A stretch of 5,613 nucleotides of DNA from a virus. Below are positions 1-5,613 of the stretch, piece after piece. Each line of letters begins with the position of its first letter. Positions within the stretch are counted from its first letter, which is position 1. A program made the position numbers and the translations under genes. The notes under the pieces are model-generated. The model ran no database searches, was not told the origin of the DNA, and saw only the letters and a list, made by a program, of their open reading frames with translations. Location: IMG/VR virus record IMGVR_UViG_3300045988_015716, one strand, 5' to 3'.

Positions 1-79
1 AAACAAAAGATATGCTTGGTAGGACAGACGTGCCATACGAAGACTATCTAAAAGCAAAAGAACAAGCAGTAAAAAAAAC
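1..79. repeat. Terminal redundancy, left copy (identical to 5535-5613); signature of a circular assembly
   Basis: Base-by-base comparison: aaacaaaagatatgcttggtaggacagacgtgccatacgaagactatctaaaagcaaaagaacaagcagtaaaaaaaac occurs at both ends of the window. Confidence 0.95.
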
Positions 80-104: not shown

Positions 105-113
105 TCTGGTGTC

Positions 114-168
114 AGTCCGCCAAGTACCTAACAAGGCAATACTTGGCGGACTTCTTTATATTATATTT
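114..168 (+). terminator. Strong hairpin plus T-rich tail, 10 nt after the VP4 stop; candidate intrinsic terminator or ssDNA structural element
   Basis: Perfect 13-bp stem: agtccgccaagta (114-126) pairs with tacttggcggact (140-152), with a 13-nt loop. It is followed by tctttatattatattt. The loop is large for a classic terminator, hence moderate confidence. Confidence 0.45.
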
Positions 169-227
169 GTTGTAGTCGTAGTAGTAGAGTACGTTGAAAA
201 GTTGAAAACAACAATTTTACAACATAG

Positions 228-254
228 ATAAATTATTTTTATATAAAATTATAT
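228..254. other. 27-nt pure A/T tract between iteron clusters 1 and 2 (possible DNA-unwinding element)
   Basis: ataaattatttttatataaaattatat contains no G or C. It is flanked by GTTGAAA clusters. Confidence 0.5.
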
Positions 255-392: not shown

Positions 393-426
393 ATTTGTCA
401 AAAGTCACAAGTGACCCTTGACAAAT
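393..426. promoter_or_regulatory. 34-bp nested palindrome overlapping the -35 element (operator-like, or an ssDNA hairpin)
   Basis: atttgtcaa (393-401) is the reverse complement of ttgacaaat (418-426). An inner palindrome gtcac-aa-gtgac lies at 404-415. 14 of 16 possible pairs form. Confidence 0.55.
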
Positions 427-446
427 CGCACAGAAACAAGTAAAAT
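418..446 (+). promoter_or_regulatory. Near-consensus sigma70-type promoter driving the peptidase and downstream genes
   Basis: TTGACA (418-423), a 17-nt spacer, then TAAAAT (441-446). The predicted transcription start near 453 lies just before the SD AAGGAGG (454-460) and the ATG at 468. Confidence 0.55.
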
Positions 447-467
447 AGACCATAAGGAGGCGATAAA

Positions 468-854
468 ATGTTAATCTTCAGAATGAACAGCGACAGCCAA
501 GAAAAAGTAGAAAAACACTTCAAAGTAAAAGAATTTGCATGTAAAGACGGAAACGACCTGGTATTGATTGACGAAAAATTGGCAAACCTACTGGAAAACA
601 TTCGAGAACATTTTGAAAAGCCTGTCCATATCAATTCAGCATTCAGAACAGAAAGTTGGAACGATGCAGTTGGAGGCCGTAGATACAGCAGACATTTAGC
701 AGGAGAAGCGGCAGACATTTGGGTTAAAGACGTAAAGCCGCATAACGTAGCTTTATACGCCGACAGCGTACTAGGTAAAACAGGTGGAATCATCTGCTAT
801 ACAAATTTTGTGCATATTGACGTTAGAAAATCGTATTACAGAAAGGGGGTATAA
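468..854 (+). CDS. Zinc peptidase of the M15 family (Peptidase_M15_3 / YcbK-MepK-like peptidoglycan peptidase), 128 aa; probable lysis enzyme
   Basis: SD AAGGAGG at 454-460. Motifs match the family: SAFR-x5-N-x3-GG-x4-S-x-H-x6-D (SAFRTESWNDAVGGRRYSRHLAGEAAD) and GGIICYTNFVHIDVR. Inferred zinc ligands are H76, D83 and H116. No signal peptide or TM segment is present. Confidence 0.85.
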   Translation: MLIFRMNSDSQEKVEKHFKVKEFACKDGNDLVLIDEKLANLLENIREHFEKPVHINSAFRTESWNDAVGGRRYSRHLAGEAADIWVKDVKPHNVALYADSVLGKTGGIICYTNFVHIDVRKSYYRKGV

Positions 855-855
855 A

Positions 856-963
856 ATGGCAATCATCAGAGTAAAAGACTTGCAGGAGGCTTTAAAGCTC
901 ATCAAGCAGGTGCTGGAAATGATGGACAAAATTTACCACGCAGTTGTCAAAGAAGAGGAGTAA
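856..963 (+). CDS. Hypothetical small protein, 35 aa (MAIIRVKDLQEALKLIKQVLEMMDKIYHAVVKEEE); absent from the ORF track
   Basis: ATG at 856 lies 6 nt after the G-rich SD GGGGG (845-849) and 1 nt after the peptidase stop. Its TAA (961-963) forms part of the next gene's SD region. It exactly fills an otherwise noncoding gap in a compact genome. I recognise no similarity. Confidence 0.4.
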   Translation: MAIIRVKDLQEALKLIKQVLEMMDKIYHAVVKEEE

Positions 964-975
964 AGGAGAAAAACA

Positions 976-1197
976 ATGAAACATTGGAACGTGCGAGACC
1001 AGACCACAGAAACATTAGAGAACCTCTTGATGAGGAAATATACAGAAATCAAAAACGATGCAAAAGCGGCAACCATGGCCGCAACAATCGAAGAGGCGAA
1101 ATATTACATTGAAGCAAAATTTCGAGCAAAAGCATTTGCAAATGAAATCGAAATCGAGCTGATAAGACGGAGGATAAACGATGGGCAAGAGAAGTAA
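976..1197 (+). CDS. Hypothetical protein, 73 aa, predicted all-helical and charged; function unknown
   Basis: SD AAGGAGA at 963-969 lies 6 nt before the ATG. The ORF is co-oriented and tightly packed, and its 3' end overlaps the next gene by 17 nt. No recognisable motif. Confidence 0.6.
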   Translation: MKHWNVRDQTTETLENLLMRKYTEIKNDAKAATMAATIEEAKYYIEAKFRAKAFANEIEIELIRRRINDGQEK

Positions 1198-1300
1198 GGT
1201 TTACCACAAAAAAGACGCAAAGATCTTCAATAAGACCGCAAAGAAAACCAAAACCATCAACCTGTCACCCAAAGCAATGCGGGGCGGCACTCGGCTGTAA
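1181..1300 (+). CDS. Small highly basic DNA-binding/packaging protein, 39 aa (gokushovirus VP8-like, analogous to phiX174 protein J); absent from the ORF track
   Basis: SD GGAGGA at 1169-1174 lies 6 nt before the ATG. The product is MGKRSKVYHKKDAKIFNKTAKKTKTINLSPKAMRGGTRL, with 10 K, 3 R and only 1 acidic residue. The C-terminal ...MRGGxRL resembles the conserved end of gokushovirus VP8 proteins as I recall them. Confidence 0.6.
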   Translation: MGKRSKVYHKKDAKIFNKTAKKTKTINLSPKAMRGGTRL

Positions 1301-1313
1301 AGGAGAAAAAACA

Positions 1314-1556
1314 ATGAAACGCAAATTTTACGCAATCTATGATAAGCTGGCAAGCCGTTACACCTACCTTTTCGAGTCTGAAAACAACATGACGGCGACC
1401 CGTCTTTTTCAGGGTGAAGCGGCACGAAAAGACGGCGTGATTAACAACAACCCGGAAGACTTCAAACTTTATGCCGTTGGCGAGTTTGACGACATCAACG
1501 GCGAATTTGCAAACCACTCTGAGAAAGTATGTGACGCAATCAAACAGGAGGAGTAA
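1314..1556 (+). CDS. VP5-like nonstructural protein, 80 aa (gokushovirus VP5, proposed protein C analogue)
   Basis: SD AGGAGA at 1301-1306. It sits immediately upstream of VP3, as in gokushoviruses. The pattern F-x-I-x-D-K...A-x-R-x-F...NPEDFxLYxVGEFDDxxGEF matches my recollection of the VP5 family. Confidence 0.65.
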   Translation: MKRKFYAIYDKLASRYTYLFESENNMTATRLFQGEAARKDGVINNNPEDFKLYAVGEFDDINGEFANHSEKVCDAIKQEE

Positions 1557-1557
1557 C

Positions 1558-2022
1558 ATGGAGTTTTACAGTGCATTCAATCCGCCTAAAAGCGAACCAA
1601 CGTGTGCAGGAGAAAAAACACGAAAAACTTACAGATGGGCCGAAAACGAAAACGGCGAAAAAGATCTGGTGGAAGACGAAGAAATCAACATCGCAGACGA
1701 GATTGAAAGTTACCATGAAGAAACCAAAATCAGCAACATCATCCGACGAGCAACATTTGACGTAAACGCCGCAAACATGCTTCTCGGCGATAACGGCAAC
1801 AACGGCGCAGACATGACGACAATGCCGGAAAACCTGATGGAAGCGCAAAACATTGTTGTAAAGGCCAAACAGGCATATGCGAACCTAACGCCAAAACAGA
1901 AAGCAGAATTCAACGGAATGAGCGACTTTATGAGAAGCGCAGGGACAGAAGAATGGGCCAAAAAGCTGGGCTTCATCACCGAAAAACCGGCAAAGGAGGA
2001 GCCAGTAAATGAACAGAAATAA
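1558..2022 (+). CDS. VP3 internal scaffolding protein, 154 aa
   Basis: The true start is taken as ATG 1558, with SD AGGAGGA at 1546-1552 and 1 nt after the VP5 stop, rather than the track's 1471. The protein has an acidic centre. The C-terminal ...MPENLMEAQNIVVKAKQAYANLTPKQKAEFNGMSDFM resembles the conserved VP3 motif (MP..x..EAQN...F..LP...R..F.N.P..F). It lies directly upstream of VP1 and overlaps it by 14 nt. Confidence 0.75.
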   Translation: MEFYSAFNPPKSEPTCAGEKTRKTYRWAENENGEKDLVEDEEINIADEIESYHEETKISNIIRRATFDVNAANMLLGDNGNNGADMTTMPENLMEAQNIVVKAKQAYANLTPKQKAEFNGMSDFMRSAGTEEWAKKLGFITEKPAKEEPVNEQK

Positions 2023-3700
2023 CGAAAGACATTTCAACAACATTCCGCAGATGAAGACAAGCCGAAGCCGTTTCAAGATGAAGCAGGACATCAAGCTCAC
2101 ACTGGATGCAGGCAACCTTATTCCATTTTACGTAGCAGAAACGTTACCGGGAGACACTTTCAGCGTAGATACCAAGGGCATTTGCAGAATGGCCACGCCA
2201 ATCTATCCGGTGATGGATAACTGCTATCTGGACATCTATTACTTCCATGTACCTATGCGAATTGTATGGGACCACGCAAAACAGTTCTTCGGTGAAAACG
2301 ACAGCACACCATGGACACAGCAGACAGAATACAAAATCCCAAAACTCAAAATCCAAGGAAGCGAAGGAGCAAAAACTGACCAAAAAATTCCACACGAGGG
2401 AAGCATTGCGGATTATTTCGGAATTCCAATCAATCTTACAACCGAAAAAGGTCTTAATGTAAAAGGAGAAATTAACGCACTACCGTTTAGAGCTTATGCC
2501 AAAATCTGGAATGAATGGTTTCGAGACCAAAATGTAGACAACCCAGCAATCTGCCCAACTGGAGACGATACAGAAAGAATGGCCATCGGAGGAGAATGGG
2601 GAAAACTCACAAAAAACGACATTCTTAAAAATGCATACAAAGGTTCAGAGCCACTGTGGGTAAATAAGTTCCATGACAGGTTCACAAGCGCTTTGCCGTT
2701 CCCTCAAAAAGGCGAAGCAACGCTAATTCCAATGAGCGGAAACGCACAAGTATATCTCGGACAAAACATCGGAGACAAAAGTACCGACACAATCTATCTC
2801 CGAAATTACACAAACAACATTCAGGGTGACCAAGTAGCACAGGCGTACAACATGAACGGAAACGCAGTGCTGAAAGGCGCACAAAGCAAAACAGGAGAAT
2901 CATTAAGCGTAAGCAACAACCTTTATGCAGACCTCAGCAACGTAACGGGAGCAACCATCAATGATCTTCGTCAAGCCTTTGCGGTGCAACAGTTCATGGA
3001 AGCCGATGCTAGAGGCGGCACACGTTACCGGGAAATCATCCGCAATCATTTTGGAGTGGACATCGACGATAAAACCGTACAAATCCCAGAATATTTGGGC
3101 GGTCAGCGGTACATGATTAACGTCAATCAGGTCGTACAGACAAGTGCAACAGACAGTAAGAGTCCACAGGGCAACGCCGCCGCAATCTCCGTGACGCCGT
3201 TTATGGAAAACAGCTTTACCAAGAGCTTCCAAGAGCACGGTTATGTAATTGGCGTATGCTGTATCCGAAATGATAACACGTATCAGCAGGGCATTGAAAA
3301 GCTTTGGAGTCGAACCGAAAAATTTGACTTCTACTGGCCAGAATTTGCACATCTAGGAGAGCAGGCAATCCTTAACAAAGAAATCTATGTACAGGGAACC
3401 GAAGACGATGAAAAGGCGTTCGGCTATCAGGAGGCATACAGCGAATACCGAATGACGCCTAACCGTGTATGCGGTGCATTCCGAAGCAACGCCACACAGT
3501 CGTTGGATGCATGGCACTATGCAGACAACTACAAAAGCCTTCCGACATTGTCGCAGGAATGGCTTGCAACGGACAAATCCGTCATTGACCGAACAATTGC
3601 AGTGCAGAACCAACCGCAATTTATCATGGACGTACTTGTAGAAAACGACGCAGTCAGACCCATGCCAATCTACGGCACGCCAGGTCTGACCAAACTGTAA
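2009..3700 (+). CDS. VP1 major capsid protein (Microviridae F/VP1 family), 563 aa
   Basis: SD AAGGAGGA at 1993-2000. The N-terminus SRSRFKMKQDIKLTLDAGNLIPFYVAETLPGDTF and the block INDLRQAFAVQQFMEADARGGTRYREIIRNHFGV are hallmark conserved microvirus capsid motifs. The size is typical of gokushovirus VP1. Confidence 0.95.
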   Translation: MNRNNERHFNNIPQMKTSRSRFKMKQDIKLTLDAGNLIPFYVAETLPGDTFSVDTKGICRMATPIYPVMDNCYLDIYYFHVPMRIVWDHAKQFFGENDSTPWTQQTEYKIPKLKIQGSEGAKTDQKIPHEGSIADYFGIPINLTTEKGLNVKGEINALPFRAYAKIWNEWFRDQNVDNPAICPTGDDTERMAIGGEWGKLTKNDILKNAYKGSEPLWVNKFHDRFTSALPFPQKGEATLIPMSGNAQVYLGQNIGDKSTDTIYLRNYTNNIQGDQVAQAYNMNGNAVLKGAQSKTGESLSVSNNLYADLSNVTGATINDLRQAFAVQQFMEADARGGTRYREIIRNHFGVDIDDKTVQIPEYLGGQRYMINVNQVVQTSATDSKSPQGNAAAISVTPFMENSFTKSFQEHGYVIGVCCIRNDNTYQQGIEKLWSRTEKFDFYWPEFAHLGEQAILNKEIYVQGTEDDEKAFGYQEAYSEYRMTPNRVCGAFRSNATQSLDAWHYADNYKSLPTLSQEWLATDKSVIDRTIAVQNQPQFIMDVLVENDAVRPMPIYGTPGLTKL

Positions 3701-3710
3701 GAAAGGAGAA

Positions 3711-3736
3711 AGCCCGGGAAACCGGGCTAATTTTAT
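3711..3736 (+). terminator. GC-rich hairpin with GNRA tetraloop plus a short T tract between VP1 and VP2; weak terminator/attenuator and/or RBS-bridging structure
   Basis: agcccgg (3711-3717), loop gaaa, then ccgggct (3722-3728): a 7-bp stem with 6 G:C pairs. It is followed by aattttat. Confidence 0.45.
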
Positions 3737-4615
3737 ATGGGACTCTTAGGAGCAATTGCAAGTGCAGTAATACCAAGCATTATTAACTACGGAGTAGGCA
3801 AATTATTTGGAAGTTCTAATACCTACGGACAAACAAGCAACCAAAACAGCCAAAGTAATGCAGGAAATTGGTCAAGCGGAGGAGGAATCAGCCAAGGCTA
3901 TGGCTACGGATGGAGCCAAGGCGGAACGAATGACGCAGTACAAAACCAAACATTACAAAACCAGTTTAACCGCAATTTAACGAGCATGGGCGCACAAGGC
4001 ATTGCAAATGCACTTGGAGCAGGTGCACAAATGCTGTATAATTACGGAATGGCAAACAAGCAAGCGGGGTTCAACGCAAGCCAAAACAAAATCGCAATGG
4101 ACTACAATTCCGCAGAAGCACAAAAAAACCGTGACTGGCAAGAAATGATGTCAAATACCGCATACCAGAGAGCAATGGCAGACATGAAAGCGGCAGGGCT
4201 TAACCCTATCTTAGCGGCAAATCTTGGAGGAGCAAGCACACCAGGAGGAGCAGTAGGAACAATCTCAGGTGCAAGCATGGGATTGCAGGGAGCAAGCGCC
4301 GCCAGCATCTCAGCGCTTGGCAATGGAGTACTGGGAAGTAACTACAACATGAGCCAAAACGAAAGCTGGAATATGAGCCAATGGCAGCAGATTTCAGAGG
4401 GATTTTCCAATATGATCTCAACTGGAAGCAGTACACCAACAAAGTTGAAAGGTGTAGTAAATGATGTCATTGACAGCGCCGCAAAAGGTGCACAAGGCGC
4501 AGGAAGACAGAAAAAAGGCGTAAAAAAAGCCGCAGAAAGAAGCACATCAACGGCCGGAGCACGCTTTGGAGAGGGCGCAACAAAGCCCGGCAAAAACGGA
4601 TATACAGGAGGATAA
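3737..4615 (+). CDS. VP2 minor capsid / DNA pilot protein, 292 aa
   Basis: The conserved block AEAQKNRDWQEMMSNTAYQRAMADMKAAGLNPILAA is typical of gokushovirus VP2. The N-terminus is a hydrophobic helix (GLLGAIASAVIPSIINYGVGKLFG), followed by a G/S/N/Q-rich region. It lies after VP1. Confidence 0.85.
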   Translation: MGLLGAIASAVIPSIINYGVGKLFGSSNTYGQTSNQNSQSNAGNWSSGGGISQGYGYGWSQGGTNDAVQNQTLQNQFNRNLTSMGAQGIANALGAGAQMLYNYGMANKQAGFNASQNKIAMDYNSAEAQKNRDWQEMMSNTAYQRAMADMKAAGLNPILAANLGGASTPGGAVGTISGASMGLQGASAASISALGNGVLGSNYNMSQNESWNMSQWQQISEGFSNMISTGSSTPTKLKGVVNDVIDSAAKGAQGAGRQKKGVKKAAERSTSTAGARFGEGATKPGKNGYTGG

Positions 4616-4618
4616 CAG

Positions 4619-5613
4619 ATGGGGTGCTATAAACCGTTAATTCGGTTTTATGTGCCCGACGATCCGGAAGCGTCTGGGCACATTTACACGCTCAGACGCT
4701 TTGCCGTTGAACGGGCAAAAAATCCTAAACTCACATACGAAGATTTAATTTACAGAAAAGACGTGATGTTGATCCCATGCGGGCAGTGTATTGGATGCAA
4801 AATCCAAAAACGGCAAGACTGGGCAACCCGCATTGAAATGGAGGCAAAAACATGGCCGAAAGAATCGGTCTGGTTTGTTACGCTGACTTACGACAATGAA
4901 CACATTCCCGGAGTAAATCACGAAACAGGCGAAGTAGTAAGGGGTGCAATGTATCTGAGACGCAAAAAGGAGCCTGAATTAGCCGTTAATCAAACACTCT
5001 GGTATGAAGACATTCAAAACTTCTTAAAACGTCTCAGAAAGGCTTACAGCGGCCAATTACGCTATTTCGTAGCTGGAGAGTACGGAGAAAGAACAGGAAG
5101 ACCACACTATCACATGATATTATTTGGTTACCAGCCGGAAAAACTTGAACCATACAGCAAAGTGAAGCCAGACGAATACATGGTTGATAGCAGAATAACA
5201 AGATGCTGGGGGTTAGGCATCCATAACCTCATCAATCCGACACAAGGCGGCTACAGCTATGTAGCAGGATACGTAACCAAAAAATTCGATGACGAGACAC
5301 TAGAACACATCAAAAACGGACTACAGCCACCATTCGCACAAATGAGCAGAAATCCGGGTCTTGGATATGAGTACTACCAAGAACACAAAGAAGAAATCTG
5401 GAAAAAAGGATACATCCAACTAGACAACGGAAAACGAGCCAGTATTCCTAGGTATTTCCAAGAAATGCAAAGAATAGAAGACCCTCGAGTACTTTGGGAG
5501 CTAAAAAAACAAAATCAGCAAAGGGCAATAGACAAAACAAAAGATATGCTTGGTAGGACAGACGTGCCATACGAAGACTATCTAAAAGCAAAAGAACAAG
5601 CAGTAAAAAAAAC
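4619..5613 (+). CDS. VP4 replication initiator (HUH rolling-circle endonuclease, phiX174 protein A-like). Partial in the window: it continues through the circular junction to base 104, for 339 aa in total
   Basis: SD AGGAGGA at 4606-4612 lies 6 nt before the ATG at 4619. My manual translation shows no stop up to 5613. Motifs found: PCGQCIGC (4775-4798), motif 1 FVTLTY (4874-4891), HUH motif HYH (5105-5113), and the double-tyrosine motif YVAGYVTKK (5258-5284; compare YVAKYVNK in phiX174 protein A). Confidence 0.93.
   Translation, partial: MGCYKPLIRFYVPDDPEASGHIYTLRRFAVERAKNPKLTYEDLIYRKDVMLIPCGQCIGCKIQKRQDWATRIEMEAKTWPKESVWFVTLTYDNEHIPGVNHETGEVVRGAMYLRRKKEPELAVNQTLWYEDIQNFLKRLRKAYSGQLRYFVAGEYGERTGRPHYHMILFGYQPEKLEPYSKVKPDEYMVDSRITRCWGLGIHNLINPTQGGYSYVAGYVTKKFDDETLEHIKNGLQPPFAQMSRNPGLGYEYYQEHKEEIWKKGYIQLDNGKRASIPRYFQEMQRIEDPRVLWELKKQNQQRAIDKTKDMLGRTDVPYEDYLKAKEQAVKK
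5535..5613. repeat. Terminal redundancy, right copy (identical to 1-79)
   Basis: See the left copy. The offset is 5,534 nt. Confidence 0.95.

Follow-up and report, generated by a model that had tools for sequence, protein, structure and literature searches.

How does a peptidoglycan peptidase encoded by a microvirus reach the cell wall, when neither the enzyme itself nor the rest of the genome seems to provide a passage through the membrane, and does it act in lysis, in entry or in some other process? The question, raised in an earlier note on this DNA, concerns the open reading frame 468..854 (+ strand) of a 5613-nt virus sequence that was analyzed here in its entirety (hereafter, the window). 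With its 79-nt direct terminal repeat, the window represents a complete circular genome of ~5534 nt. Profile searches identify this genome as that of a gokushovirus, with matches to the Phage_F capsid, Chlamy_scaf and Phage_ORF5 families, a pilot protein and a Rep protein whose gene wraps across the 79-nt repeat. All supported genes are on the + strand: the M15 peptidase gene, identified by both Pfam and PHROG matches (468..854, 128 aa), orf35, encoding an amphipathic 35-aa peptide and starting 1 nt after the peptidase stop codon (856..963), orf73, encoding a 73-aa ‘WNVRDQ' protein (976..1197), orf39, encoding a basic 39-aa protein (1181..1300, phrog_10695), VP5 (1314..1556, Phage_ORF5), the scaffold protein VP3 (likely start, the ATG at 1558; Chlamy_scaf), the capsid protein VP1 (2009..3700; Phage_F, E 4e-150), the pilot protein VP2 (3737..4615; PHROG 8742, E 1e-60) and the Rep protein VP4, which begins at 4619 and wraps round to 104. 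The order VP4, intergenic region, peptidase, small ORFs, VP5, VP3, VP1, VP2 is shared with human-gut microvirus records, and megablast against deposited phage genomes detects patchy similarity only.

The peptidase ORF runs from an ATG to a TAA codon and encodes a 128-aa protein (14.7 kDa, pI 8.5) with no additional domain; a longer N-terminus is precluded by the TAA codon at 453-455, which is in the same frame. Direct reading of the sequence reveals a strong Shine-Dalgarno element, AAGGAGG (454..460, +), located 7 nt 5' of the ATG, and GGAGG-type elements precede most of the genes in this genome. Immediately upstream lies a sigma-70-like promoter site (418..446, +) that consists of TTGACA at 418-423, a 17-nt spacer and TAAAAT at 441-446. 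With 11 of the 12 consensus positions, it matches better than any other sigma-70-like site in the genome; it is a consensus match only, and promoter-like sites genome-wide (9 found vs 8.0 expected) do not exceed the count expected by chance. The closest relative (L011) has the same site without a single change, and the TAAAAT element is retained in two more distant genomes (L012 and L015).

The family assignment of the encoded protein is confirmed. The match to Pfam PF08291 (Peptidase_M15_3) spans positions 1-108 of the 108-position profile (E 3.3e-25, 88.7 bits vs the cut-off of 23.2), PHROG 894, a family annotated as ‘endolysin', matches as well (E 4.5e-37), and the score with Pfam M15_2, 25.5 bits, falls just under the cut-off of 27. 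The motifs SxH-x6-D and FVHIDVR that had been read from the translation are found exactly at S74-R-H76-x6-D83 and F114-V-H116-I-D118-V-R120. The former is the zinc-binding motif H76-x6-D83 (SRHLAGEAAD; 693..716, +, with the H76 codon at 693-695 and the D83 codon at 714-716), and the latter includes H116-I-D118-V-R120 (813..827, +), which supplies the third zinc ligand, H116 (codon 813-815), along with invariant acidic and basic residues. All these residues, H76, D83, H116, D118 and R120, as well as R60 and S74, are invariant in an alignment of 38 sequences with identity down to 42%, and likewise across 122 sequences. The AlphaFold2 model of the protein (pLDDT 97.8, pTM 0.90) has the predicted LAS (Hedgehog / DD-peptidase) fold: in a Foldseek search of the PDB, the M15-type enzyme 1LBU ranks first (E 8e-5, prob 1.0), followed by other proteins of this fold, namely, Hedgehog N-domains, VanXYc, ChiX, LysECD7 and Ply500. 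A profile search against the PDB also retrieves 1LBU (E 7e-10), with H76 and D83 falling on its H-x6-D motif (chain residues 154 and 161), and H116 aligns with the second histidine of the Hedgehog HVH zinc motif. Taken together, the profile match, the invariant ligands and the fold identify an M15_3 / LAS-type zinc peptidoglycan peptidase, as the earlier note maintained, from which we infer that the product is, with high probability, an active M15-type peptidoglycan peptidase.

The likeness to characterized enzymes is limited. The zinc D-Ala-D-Ala carboxypeptidase of Streptomyces albus G (1LBU, MEROPS M15A), the best match among the solved structures, shares the H-x6-D motif and the preceding arginine with the microvirus protein but is a secreted enzyme of 213 aa with an extra N-terminal domain, with ~20% identity and TMq of 0.56, and its substrate specificity cannot be transferred to the microvirus peptidase. 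The L,D-endopeptidase MepK (YcbK) of Escherichia coli belongs to the same clan and has the H-x6-D ... H motif in common with the window's protein, and some homologues are named ‘YcbK (DUF882 family)' at JGI. Orthology with MepK has to be rejected, however, given that both relevant cut-offs are missed, that of Pfam M15_2 and that of the NCBIfam MepK equivalog (NF053624; 29.8 bits vs 185). MepK is exported, whereas the window's peptidase has no export signal.

Neither the gene nor its presumed role is new, and the novelty attributed to them in the earlier note was overstated. Roux et al. described M15_3 peptidases in 11 human-associated Microviridae in 2012, showed that their homologues have holins as neighbors in prophages and suggested that the peptidases function as endolysins (PMC3394797), and the gene is annotated in dozens of GenBank records (for example, KX513868, ‘peptidase M15', and MG945781, ‘similar to peptidase'). 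According to Kirchberger et al. (2022), peptidases are among the accessory genes linked to lysis in many microvirus families (PMC9239249), and an M15 metallopeptidase is encoded by cultured Roseobacter microviruses of the Occultatumvirinae (PMC11499846). The window's peptidase is like those of the human-gut Gokushovirinae/Alpavirinae in the Pfam family, the gene order, the proposed endolysin role, the lack of an annotated holin and the placement in one tree clade, but is only 44-56% identical to the deposited phage records; all members found of its own sub-clade (77-92% identity) come from Logan, ENA and JGI assemblies or from two nr entries, ‘MAG TPA: peptidase [Microviridae sp.]'. With both the gene and its presumed role on record since 2012, the contribution of the window is limited to a new sub-clade and to the comparative case made here.

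The statement that such enzymes lack functional characterization holds for the microvirus M15_3 peptidases, for which no activity data were found in the searched literature, but not for microvirus peptidoglycan hydrolases in general: Ebor Gp7, the only experimentally verified one in that literature, was reported in 2025 to be active on sacculi (PMC11980548). Like the window's peptidase, Gp7 is an accessory peptidoglycan hydrolase of a microvirus, but it belongs to a different, amidase-like family (the HHpred template is 6SSC, the Ts2631 amidase-type endolysin), and the Ebor genome also encodes a 45-aa predicted membrane protein (PMC11980548). With regard to the missing holin of peptidase-bearing microviruses, the same literature yielded no analysis beyond the remark made in 2012.

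The distribution of the gene is not sporadic, as the earlier note had it, but rather covers a whole clade of gut gokushoviruses. A search of 5.8 billion proteins retrieved 163 homologues of the peptidase, including 27 that are 77-92% identical to it and are encoded on contigs of 1-6 kb, mostly ~5-6 kb, that is, of microvirus size. In a neighbor-joining tree of 122 sequences (midpoint-rooted, with no bootstrap support), all 51 microvirus peptidases fall into one clade, apart from the 71 tailed-phage sequences. Furthermore, the gene is present in every sampled genome with a VP1 ~50% or more identical to that of the window and is missing in the group with 43-47% identity, a pattern that fits a single old acquisition followed by vertical retention. 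Some exchange of the peptidase between microviruses has occurred as well, as indicated by a genome (L012) with a peptidase 77% identical to that of the window but a VP1 only 45% identical, and a similar case has been described by Kirchberger et al. (PMC9239249). The Nei-Gojobori dN/dS values for comparisons with three relatives, 0.11, 0.12 and 0.23, show that the gene is kept under purifying selection.

Outside the microviruses, close relatives are found among the endolysins of tailed phages. The M15 endolysins of this kind (PHROG 894), such as those of the Faecalibacterium phage FP_oengus, of Vibrio podophages and of phi29-like gut podoviruses, show 45-48% identity to the window's peptidase and share every invariant residue, and the best matches in a BFVD search are tailed-phage ‘peptidase' proteins with predicted folds nearly identical to that of the microvirus enzyme (TM 0.93-0.95). 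The two groups are identical at the catalytic and conserved positions and differ only at I109 (G in the tailed phages), Y124 and the C-terminal YRKGV, the last contrast being in part an artefact of tblastn HSP truncation; with the differences so confined, the group-specific residues were rejected as a hint of a new function. An endolysin role is thus suggested by homology, given that annotated endolysins are found at this level of identity, and the same role has been proposed before for microvirus peptidases (PMC3394797, PMC9239249). The tailed-phage enzymes differ in being accompanied by holins and, in some cases, in being modular (341-349 aa), whereas the microvirus protein consists of the catalytic domain alone and comes without a holin. 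As for the donor lineage sought in the earlier note, a single-protein scan of bacterial genomes detected three weak loci only, the best one (48%) in a Peptococcaceae MAG, and was uninformative with respect to either donor or host. Among the close tailed-phage relatives in the sample, that is, phi29-like podoviruses, FP_oengus and Vibrio podophages, the Vibrio endolysins are at about the same distance as those of the Firmicutes-type phages, which makes the hint at the host weak.

M15A domains also occur in virion-associated entry lysins of tailed phages, a fact that speaks against the endolysin reading. Under the entry scenario, a few copies of the peptidase, located in or on the virion, would digest peptidoglycan locally during DNA delivery. 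In tailed phages, such domains reside within large tail or baseplate proteins of 800-1200 aa, including Gp5 OB-fold proteins, and Ebor Gp7, although from another family, has been detected in trace amounts in virions (PMC11980548). The window's peptidase, in contrast, is a free-standing protein that is not fused to a structural protein and has no capsid-binding module, and the closest family is classed as endolysin by PHROG. Its gene occupies a variable, accessory slot, with the long Rep-proximal intergenic region on one side and a conserved module of small genes on the other, and in one genome (L004, KT264790), this slot holds unrelated ORFs of 89 and 56 aa instead. Most related gokushoviruses infect their hosts without a peptidase, so the enzyme is dispensable in the sister clades, and there is little room to spare in a T=1 capsid. 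An entry function therefore seems very unlikely.

For an endolysin, the question of access to the wall comes to the fore. No signal or SAR sequence is present in the peptidase: its N-terminus, MLIFRMNSDSQEKVEKHFKVKEF, contains no Kyte-Doolittle window that reaches 1.6, residues 1-23 are polar or charged, and residues 2-5 form a strand of the fold in the AlphaFold2 model. Together with the in-frame stop codon upstream, these features bear out the original reading that the protein lacks a signal sequence. With respect to the canonical holin-endolysin(-spanin) cassette, the muralytic enzyme is present, by homology only, and no holin was found by two hydropathy criteria in the + frames. The Kyte-Doolittle scan of every + frame detects two hydrophobic segments, the N-terminus of VP2, MGLLGAIASAVIPSIINYGVGKL (3737..3805, +), which is a candidate membrane-breaching element, and a part of ORF 109..231; a search for stretches of 16 or more residues without a charge, the second of the criteria, detects ORF 109..231 alone. 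The VP2 segment is conserved in two relatives (L011 and L014) and is the sole conserved membrane-type segment encoded in the genome. The claim that the VP2 N-terminus is the only TM-like segment accordingly stands for conserved segments and has to be amended for ORF 109..231, which is TM-like as well but not conserved.

ORF 109..231 was examined as a holin candidate and rejected. This 40-aa ORF begins with GTG directly after the Rep stop codon and contains AILGGLLYIIFVVVVVV, but its span overlaps that of a perfect 13-bp hairpin (114-152), a TTGTTGTAGTnGTAGTAGTAG motif accounts for the VVVVVV run, and the underlying DNA motif (TTGTTGTAGTnGTAGTAGTAGAG, with GTTGAAA repeats) is conserved in relatives at the nucleotide level. 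In KT264791, KX513868 and KT264790, stop codons interrupt the frame upstream, and in the closest relatives, the ORF has either diverged to a non-TM sequence (L011) or is absent (L014). With a core that consists of a hairpin arm and a conserved DNA motif, this region appears to be non-coding and was treated as such.

The scan of all + frames for short overprinted TM ORFs that the earlier note called for yielded no conserved candidate, and no ORF of the phiX174 E type, short, overprinted and with an N-terminal TM segment, exists in any + frame of the window. The comparison with protein E and other amurins is nonetheless apt because, in each case, the presumed lysis function belongs to a very small phage devoid of a holin-endolysin-spanin set; the difference is that E of phiX174, a small membrane protein encoded by an overprinted gene, blocks MraY, whereas the window's protein belongs to a family of muralytic enzymes.

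The absence of a membrane partner is not a peculiarity of the window. Among 33 peptidase-bearing microvirus genomes drawn from GenBank, Logan/ENA and IMG/VR, only one contains a convincing small TM ORF (L007, 39 aa, just 5' of VP5), with two more hits being dubious, and none of the 16 peptidase-bearing genomes in a second sample, drawn by VP1 similarity, contains a TM ORF, so that 48 of the 49 peptidase-bearing gut gokushovirus genomes in the two samples combined lack a convincing one. This survey left aside the distant environmental microviruses (L142 and L148-L161) because their T-rich coding strand gives rise to many spurious hydrophobic ORFs. As a positive control, the same criterion was applied to 62 tailed-phage loci, and in 48 of these, it detected a same-strand ORF with a TM-like segment within 2 kb of the peptidase gene. 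Many of these ORFs are obvious holins; the main exceptions are the 15-kb phi29-like podoviruses, in which a Holin_SPP1 gene lies 5.6 kb away in the genome. The lack of a recognizable membrane partner is real and clade-wide, in line with the initial observation that the window encodes no holin. Gut gokushoviruses without the peptidase, for the most part, also lack TM ORFs (~28 of 29). The TM mini-ORFs, of 38-39 aa, are rare (L004, L007 and L139 only, among ~80 genomes) and occur with or without the peptidase, so the possibility that peptidases and small TM ORFs are alternative lysis modules is unsupported.

Being based on hydropathy, the TM scan could miss an unconventional membrane-active protein, such as the amphipathic 35-aa peptide encoded next to the peptidase. 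Conceivably, orf35, or VP2 produced in excess and acting through its N-terminal helix, might permeabilize the membrane and release the peptidase, thus serving as a holin without a classical TM segment. The tight coupling of orf35 to the peptidase gene, the high hydrophobic moment of its heptad-patterned product (muH 0.67, mean H 0.08) and its conservation across the group with the LDKIYHA core are compatible with such a role, as is the status of the VP2 N-terminus as the only conserved hydrophobic segment. The small-gene module adjacent to the peptidase slot, which encodes the ~35-aa peptide with the LDKIYHA core, the ~73-aa ‘WNVRDQ' protein and the ~39-aa basic protein, is, however, conserved across the group, and all three genes are present in the peptidase-less L004; accordingly, orf35, orf73 and orf39 are core genes rather than partners of the peptidase, and orf35 (856..963) was rejected as a peptidase-specific partner. 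Besides, the net charge of the orf35 product is -1, unlike that of known membrane-lytic phage peptides, and neither VP2 nor H is known from experiments to function as a holin. A dedicated partner of this kind hence appears unlikely.

A scenario that dispenses with access to the wall altogether is that the peptidase stays in the cytoplasm and hydrolyzes peptidoglycan precursors, that is, D-Ala-D-Ala, UDP-MurNAc-pentapeptide or the stem peptide of lipid II, acting as an enzymatic amurin. Wall synthesis would then be starved, and growing cells would lyse without a holin, in a catalytic version of single-gene lysis. In favor of this scenario, ~49 genomes offer the enzyme no means of export, the closest solved structure, 1LBU, is a D-Ala-D-Ala / muramoyl-pentapeptide carboxypeptidase, and VanXY-type enzymes are among the fold matches. 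VanX acts on cytoplasmic precursors. A block of peptidoglycan synthesis is also the typical mode of lysis by small phages, according to two sources (PMC3394797; bioRxiv 10.1101/2023.10.16.562596). Evidence to the contrary comes from the tailed phages, in which homologues with 45-50% identity and the same catalytic and conserved positions are accompanied by holins and hence act on the mature wall; such near-identity of the active sites with those of holin-dependent enzymes disfavors a switch to precursors, and no sign of neo-functionalization is apparent, considering that only I109, Y124 and the C-terminal YRKGV set the microvirus enzymes apart. Peptidase or amidase endolysins of tailed phages that build up in the cytoplasm are not known to cause lysis by themselves. 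Finally, a precursor hydrolase with a strong Shine-Dalgarno element, encoded in the first position after the promoter, would be predicted to trigger lysis very early. Altogether, this mechanism seems very unlikely.

The scenario that we favor is an endolysin without a holin of its own. In the absence of a signal peptide, a SAR domain and a holin, access to the wall must depend on a lesion from another source. Such a source seems to be at hand: peptidase-less gokushoviruses have no TM ORFs either, and yet, cultured gokushoviruses without a peptidase lyse their hosts (PMC7062461), which implies that a core, non-holin lysis route exists. Under this scenario, an ancestor of the gut gokushovirus clade would have acquired the peptidase gene from the tailed-phage/bacterial pool, and the clade would have retained it vertically, in a variable accessory slot. 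The product, a soluble, single-domain zinc metallopeptidase made in the cytoplasm, would cut peptide bonds in peptidoglycan and serve as the phage endolysin for progeny release, reaching the wall through a membrane lesion made by something else, most likely, by the core lysis function that is also used by the peptidase-less gokushoviruses. The peptidase would then ride on this core function and complete or speed up the breakdown of the wall. The candidates for the source of the lesion that are visible in the sequence are the N-terminal hydrophobic helix of VP2 and the amphipathic 35-aa peptide, both of which may be considered for this role. What argues against the endolysin reading, in addition to the M15A domains of entry lysins, is that a strongly translated gene located first after the promoter is not matched by any gating protein, so that the timing of lysis is left unexplained. 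For the scenario as a whole, in which the enzyme's muralytic activity, its part in lysis and its way through the membrane are all deduced, we estimate a probability of roughly 60%.

Gokushoviruses are among the most abundant ssDNA phages in the gut and in the environment, and the puzzle of holin-less lysis in this group is a general and already recognized one. A 5.5-kb genome in which every ORF can be enumerated, and which combines a conserved muralytic enzyme with the lack of a membrane protein, is a compact system for addressing the question of how endolysins gain access to the wall. In particular, the peptidase could be used to find out whether cell lysis by an M15 enzyme is possible from the cytoplasmic side, and should it prove to attack precursors after all, this would amount to a class of single-gene lysis not previously known in small phages. 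On the practical side, the enzyme is a candidate for a small, single-domain lysin.

An exact 79-nt direct repeat occupies both termini of the window (1-79 and 5535-5613), which shows the contig to be a complete circular genome of ~5534 nt, with the Rep gene running from position 4619 across the ends to position 104. Ten nucleotides past the Rep stop codon lies a perfect 13-bp hairpin (114-152; arms AGTCCGCCAAGTA and TACTTGGCGGACT, 13-nt loop), which may act in transcription termination or as the origin for the complementary strand; at the matching position, KT264791 and KX513868 contain another hairpin, CCCAGTACC...GGTACTGGG.

The intergenic region that hosts this hairpin (105-467) also contains, at 158-372, a dense array of at least 10 copies of the repeat (A/T)GTTGAAA(A), together with the motif TTGTTGTAGTCGTAGTAGTAGAG within the same interval. 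The array and the motif show 77-83% nucleotide conservation in KT264790/91, KX513868, MG945233 and MT135277, gokushoviruses with VP1 only ~50% identical to that of the window, and they could represent iterons bound by Rep, an origin, or an array with a regulatory role. On the reverse strand of the array, a gene caller yields spurious ‘FQHFQH' ORFs. Further downstream, the -35 box (TTGACA) of the peptidase promoter is embedded in an inverted repeat (385-434; 24-nt arms, 88% complementary, 2-nt gap) that is retained in the closest relative, L011, and is not conserved in L012, L014 or L015. This element could be an operator or else an ssDNA hairpin serving as a promoter or primer site.

The predicted endolysin itself, an M15_3 peptidase (468-854, plus strand), is far better conserved than the capsid protein: its identity to the homologs in L012/L013 and L015/L016 is 77% and 64%, respectively, compared with 45% and 43% for VP1. 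This disparity suggests that divergent gokushoviruses have exchanged the peptidase region or, alternatively, that VP1 evolves very fast. Related peptidases, 44-47% identical to that of the window, are also encoded in an abundant group of ~15-kb gut contigs (L053, L055, L057, L067, L068, L076, L085-L095 and L100). Judging from Pfam matches to the Gp16 ATPase, Phi29_MCP, the connector and the protein-primed PolB, L100 is a phi29-like podovirus; this Pfam-based assignment applies to L100 alone, and the remaining contigs, similar in size and in their peptidase, presumably belong to the same group. The holin of L100 (Holin_SPP1) is encoded 5.6 kb away from the endolysin, that is, the two genes are not adjacent.

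One nucleotide past the peptidase stop codon, a 35-aa ORF begins on the plus strand (856-963); its product is a heptad-patterned amphipathic helix, with a muH of 0.67, in which an LDKIYHA core is conserved. Almost every gut gokushovirus examined has this ORF, the peptidase-less KT264790 among them, and its sole family match is a weak one, to phrog_4305. Next on the same strand are two conserved genes, one for a 73-aa ‘WNVRDQ...' protein (976-1197), which runs into the start of the other (1181-1300), for a 39-aa protein of very basic character (phrog_10695; ...INLSPKAMRGGTRL; net charge of +12) that is probably a J/VP8-like DNA-binding protein. The longest ORF for the scaffold protein VP3 overlaps the VP5 gene by 86 nt (1471-1557); the VP3 calls of 154 aa in relatives, together with an ATG at 1558 that directly follows the VP5 stop codon, suggest 1558 as the true start. 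Between VP1 and VP2, a GC-rich hairpin (3711-3728; AGCCCGG GAAA CCGGGCT) has a terminator-like score on both strands.

Rare ORFs of 38-39 aa in three other gokushoviruses (KT264790, 5148-5264; L007, 5057-5176; L139, 171-287) encode an N-terminal TM helix followed by a charged tail, e.g. MNIIIWIGCIASLIAICSASFALIAMGIDIIKNWKEKE, and are candidates for E-like single-gene lysis proteins or holin-like proteins of gokushoviruses. In KT264790 and L007, the two genomes compared in this respect, the ORF is located directly upstream of VP5, and the L139 peptide is a homolog of that from KT264790; L007 carries the peptidase, and the other two lack it. In the window, a 40-aa plus-strand ORF with a GTG start (109-231) and a very hydrophobic core, AILGGLLYIIFVVVVVV, has a holin-like appearance. 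The ORF was rejected as a holin: its coding sequence consists of one arm of a hairpin and the conserved DNA motif noted above, and no relative retains it as an ORF. Automated holin finders are easily misled by it.
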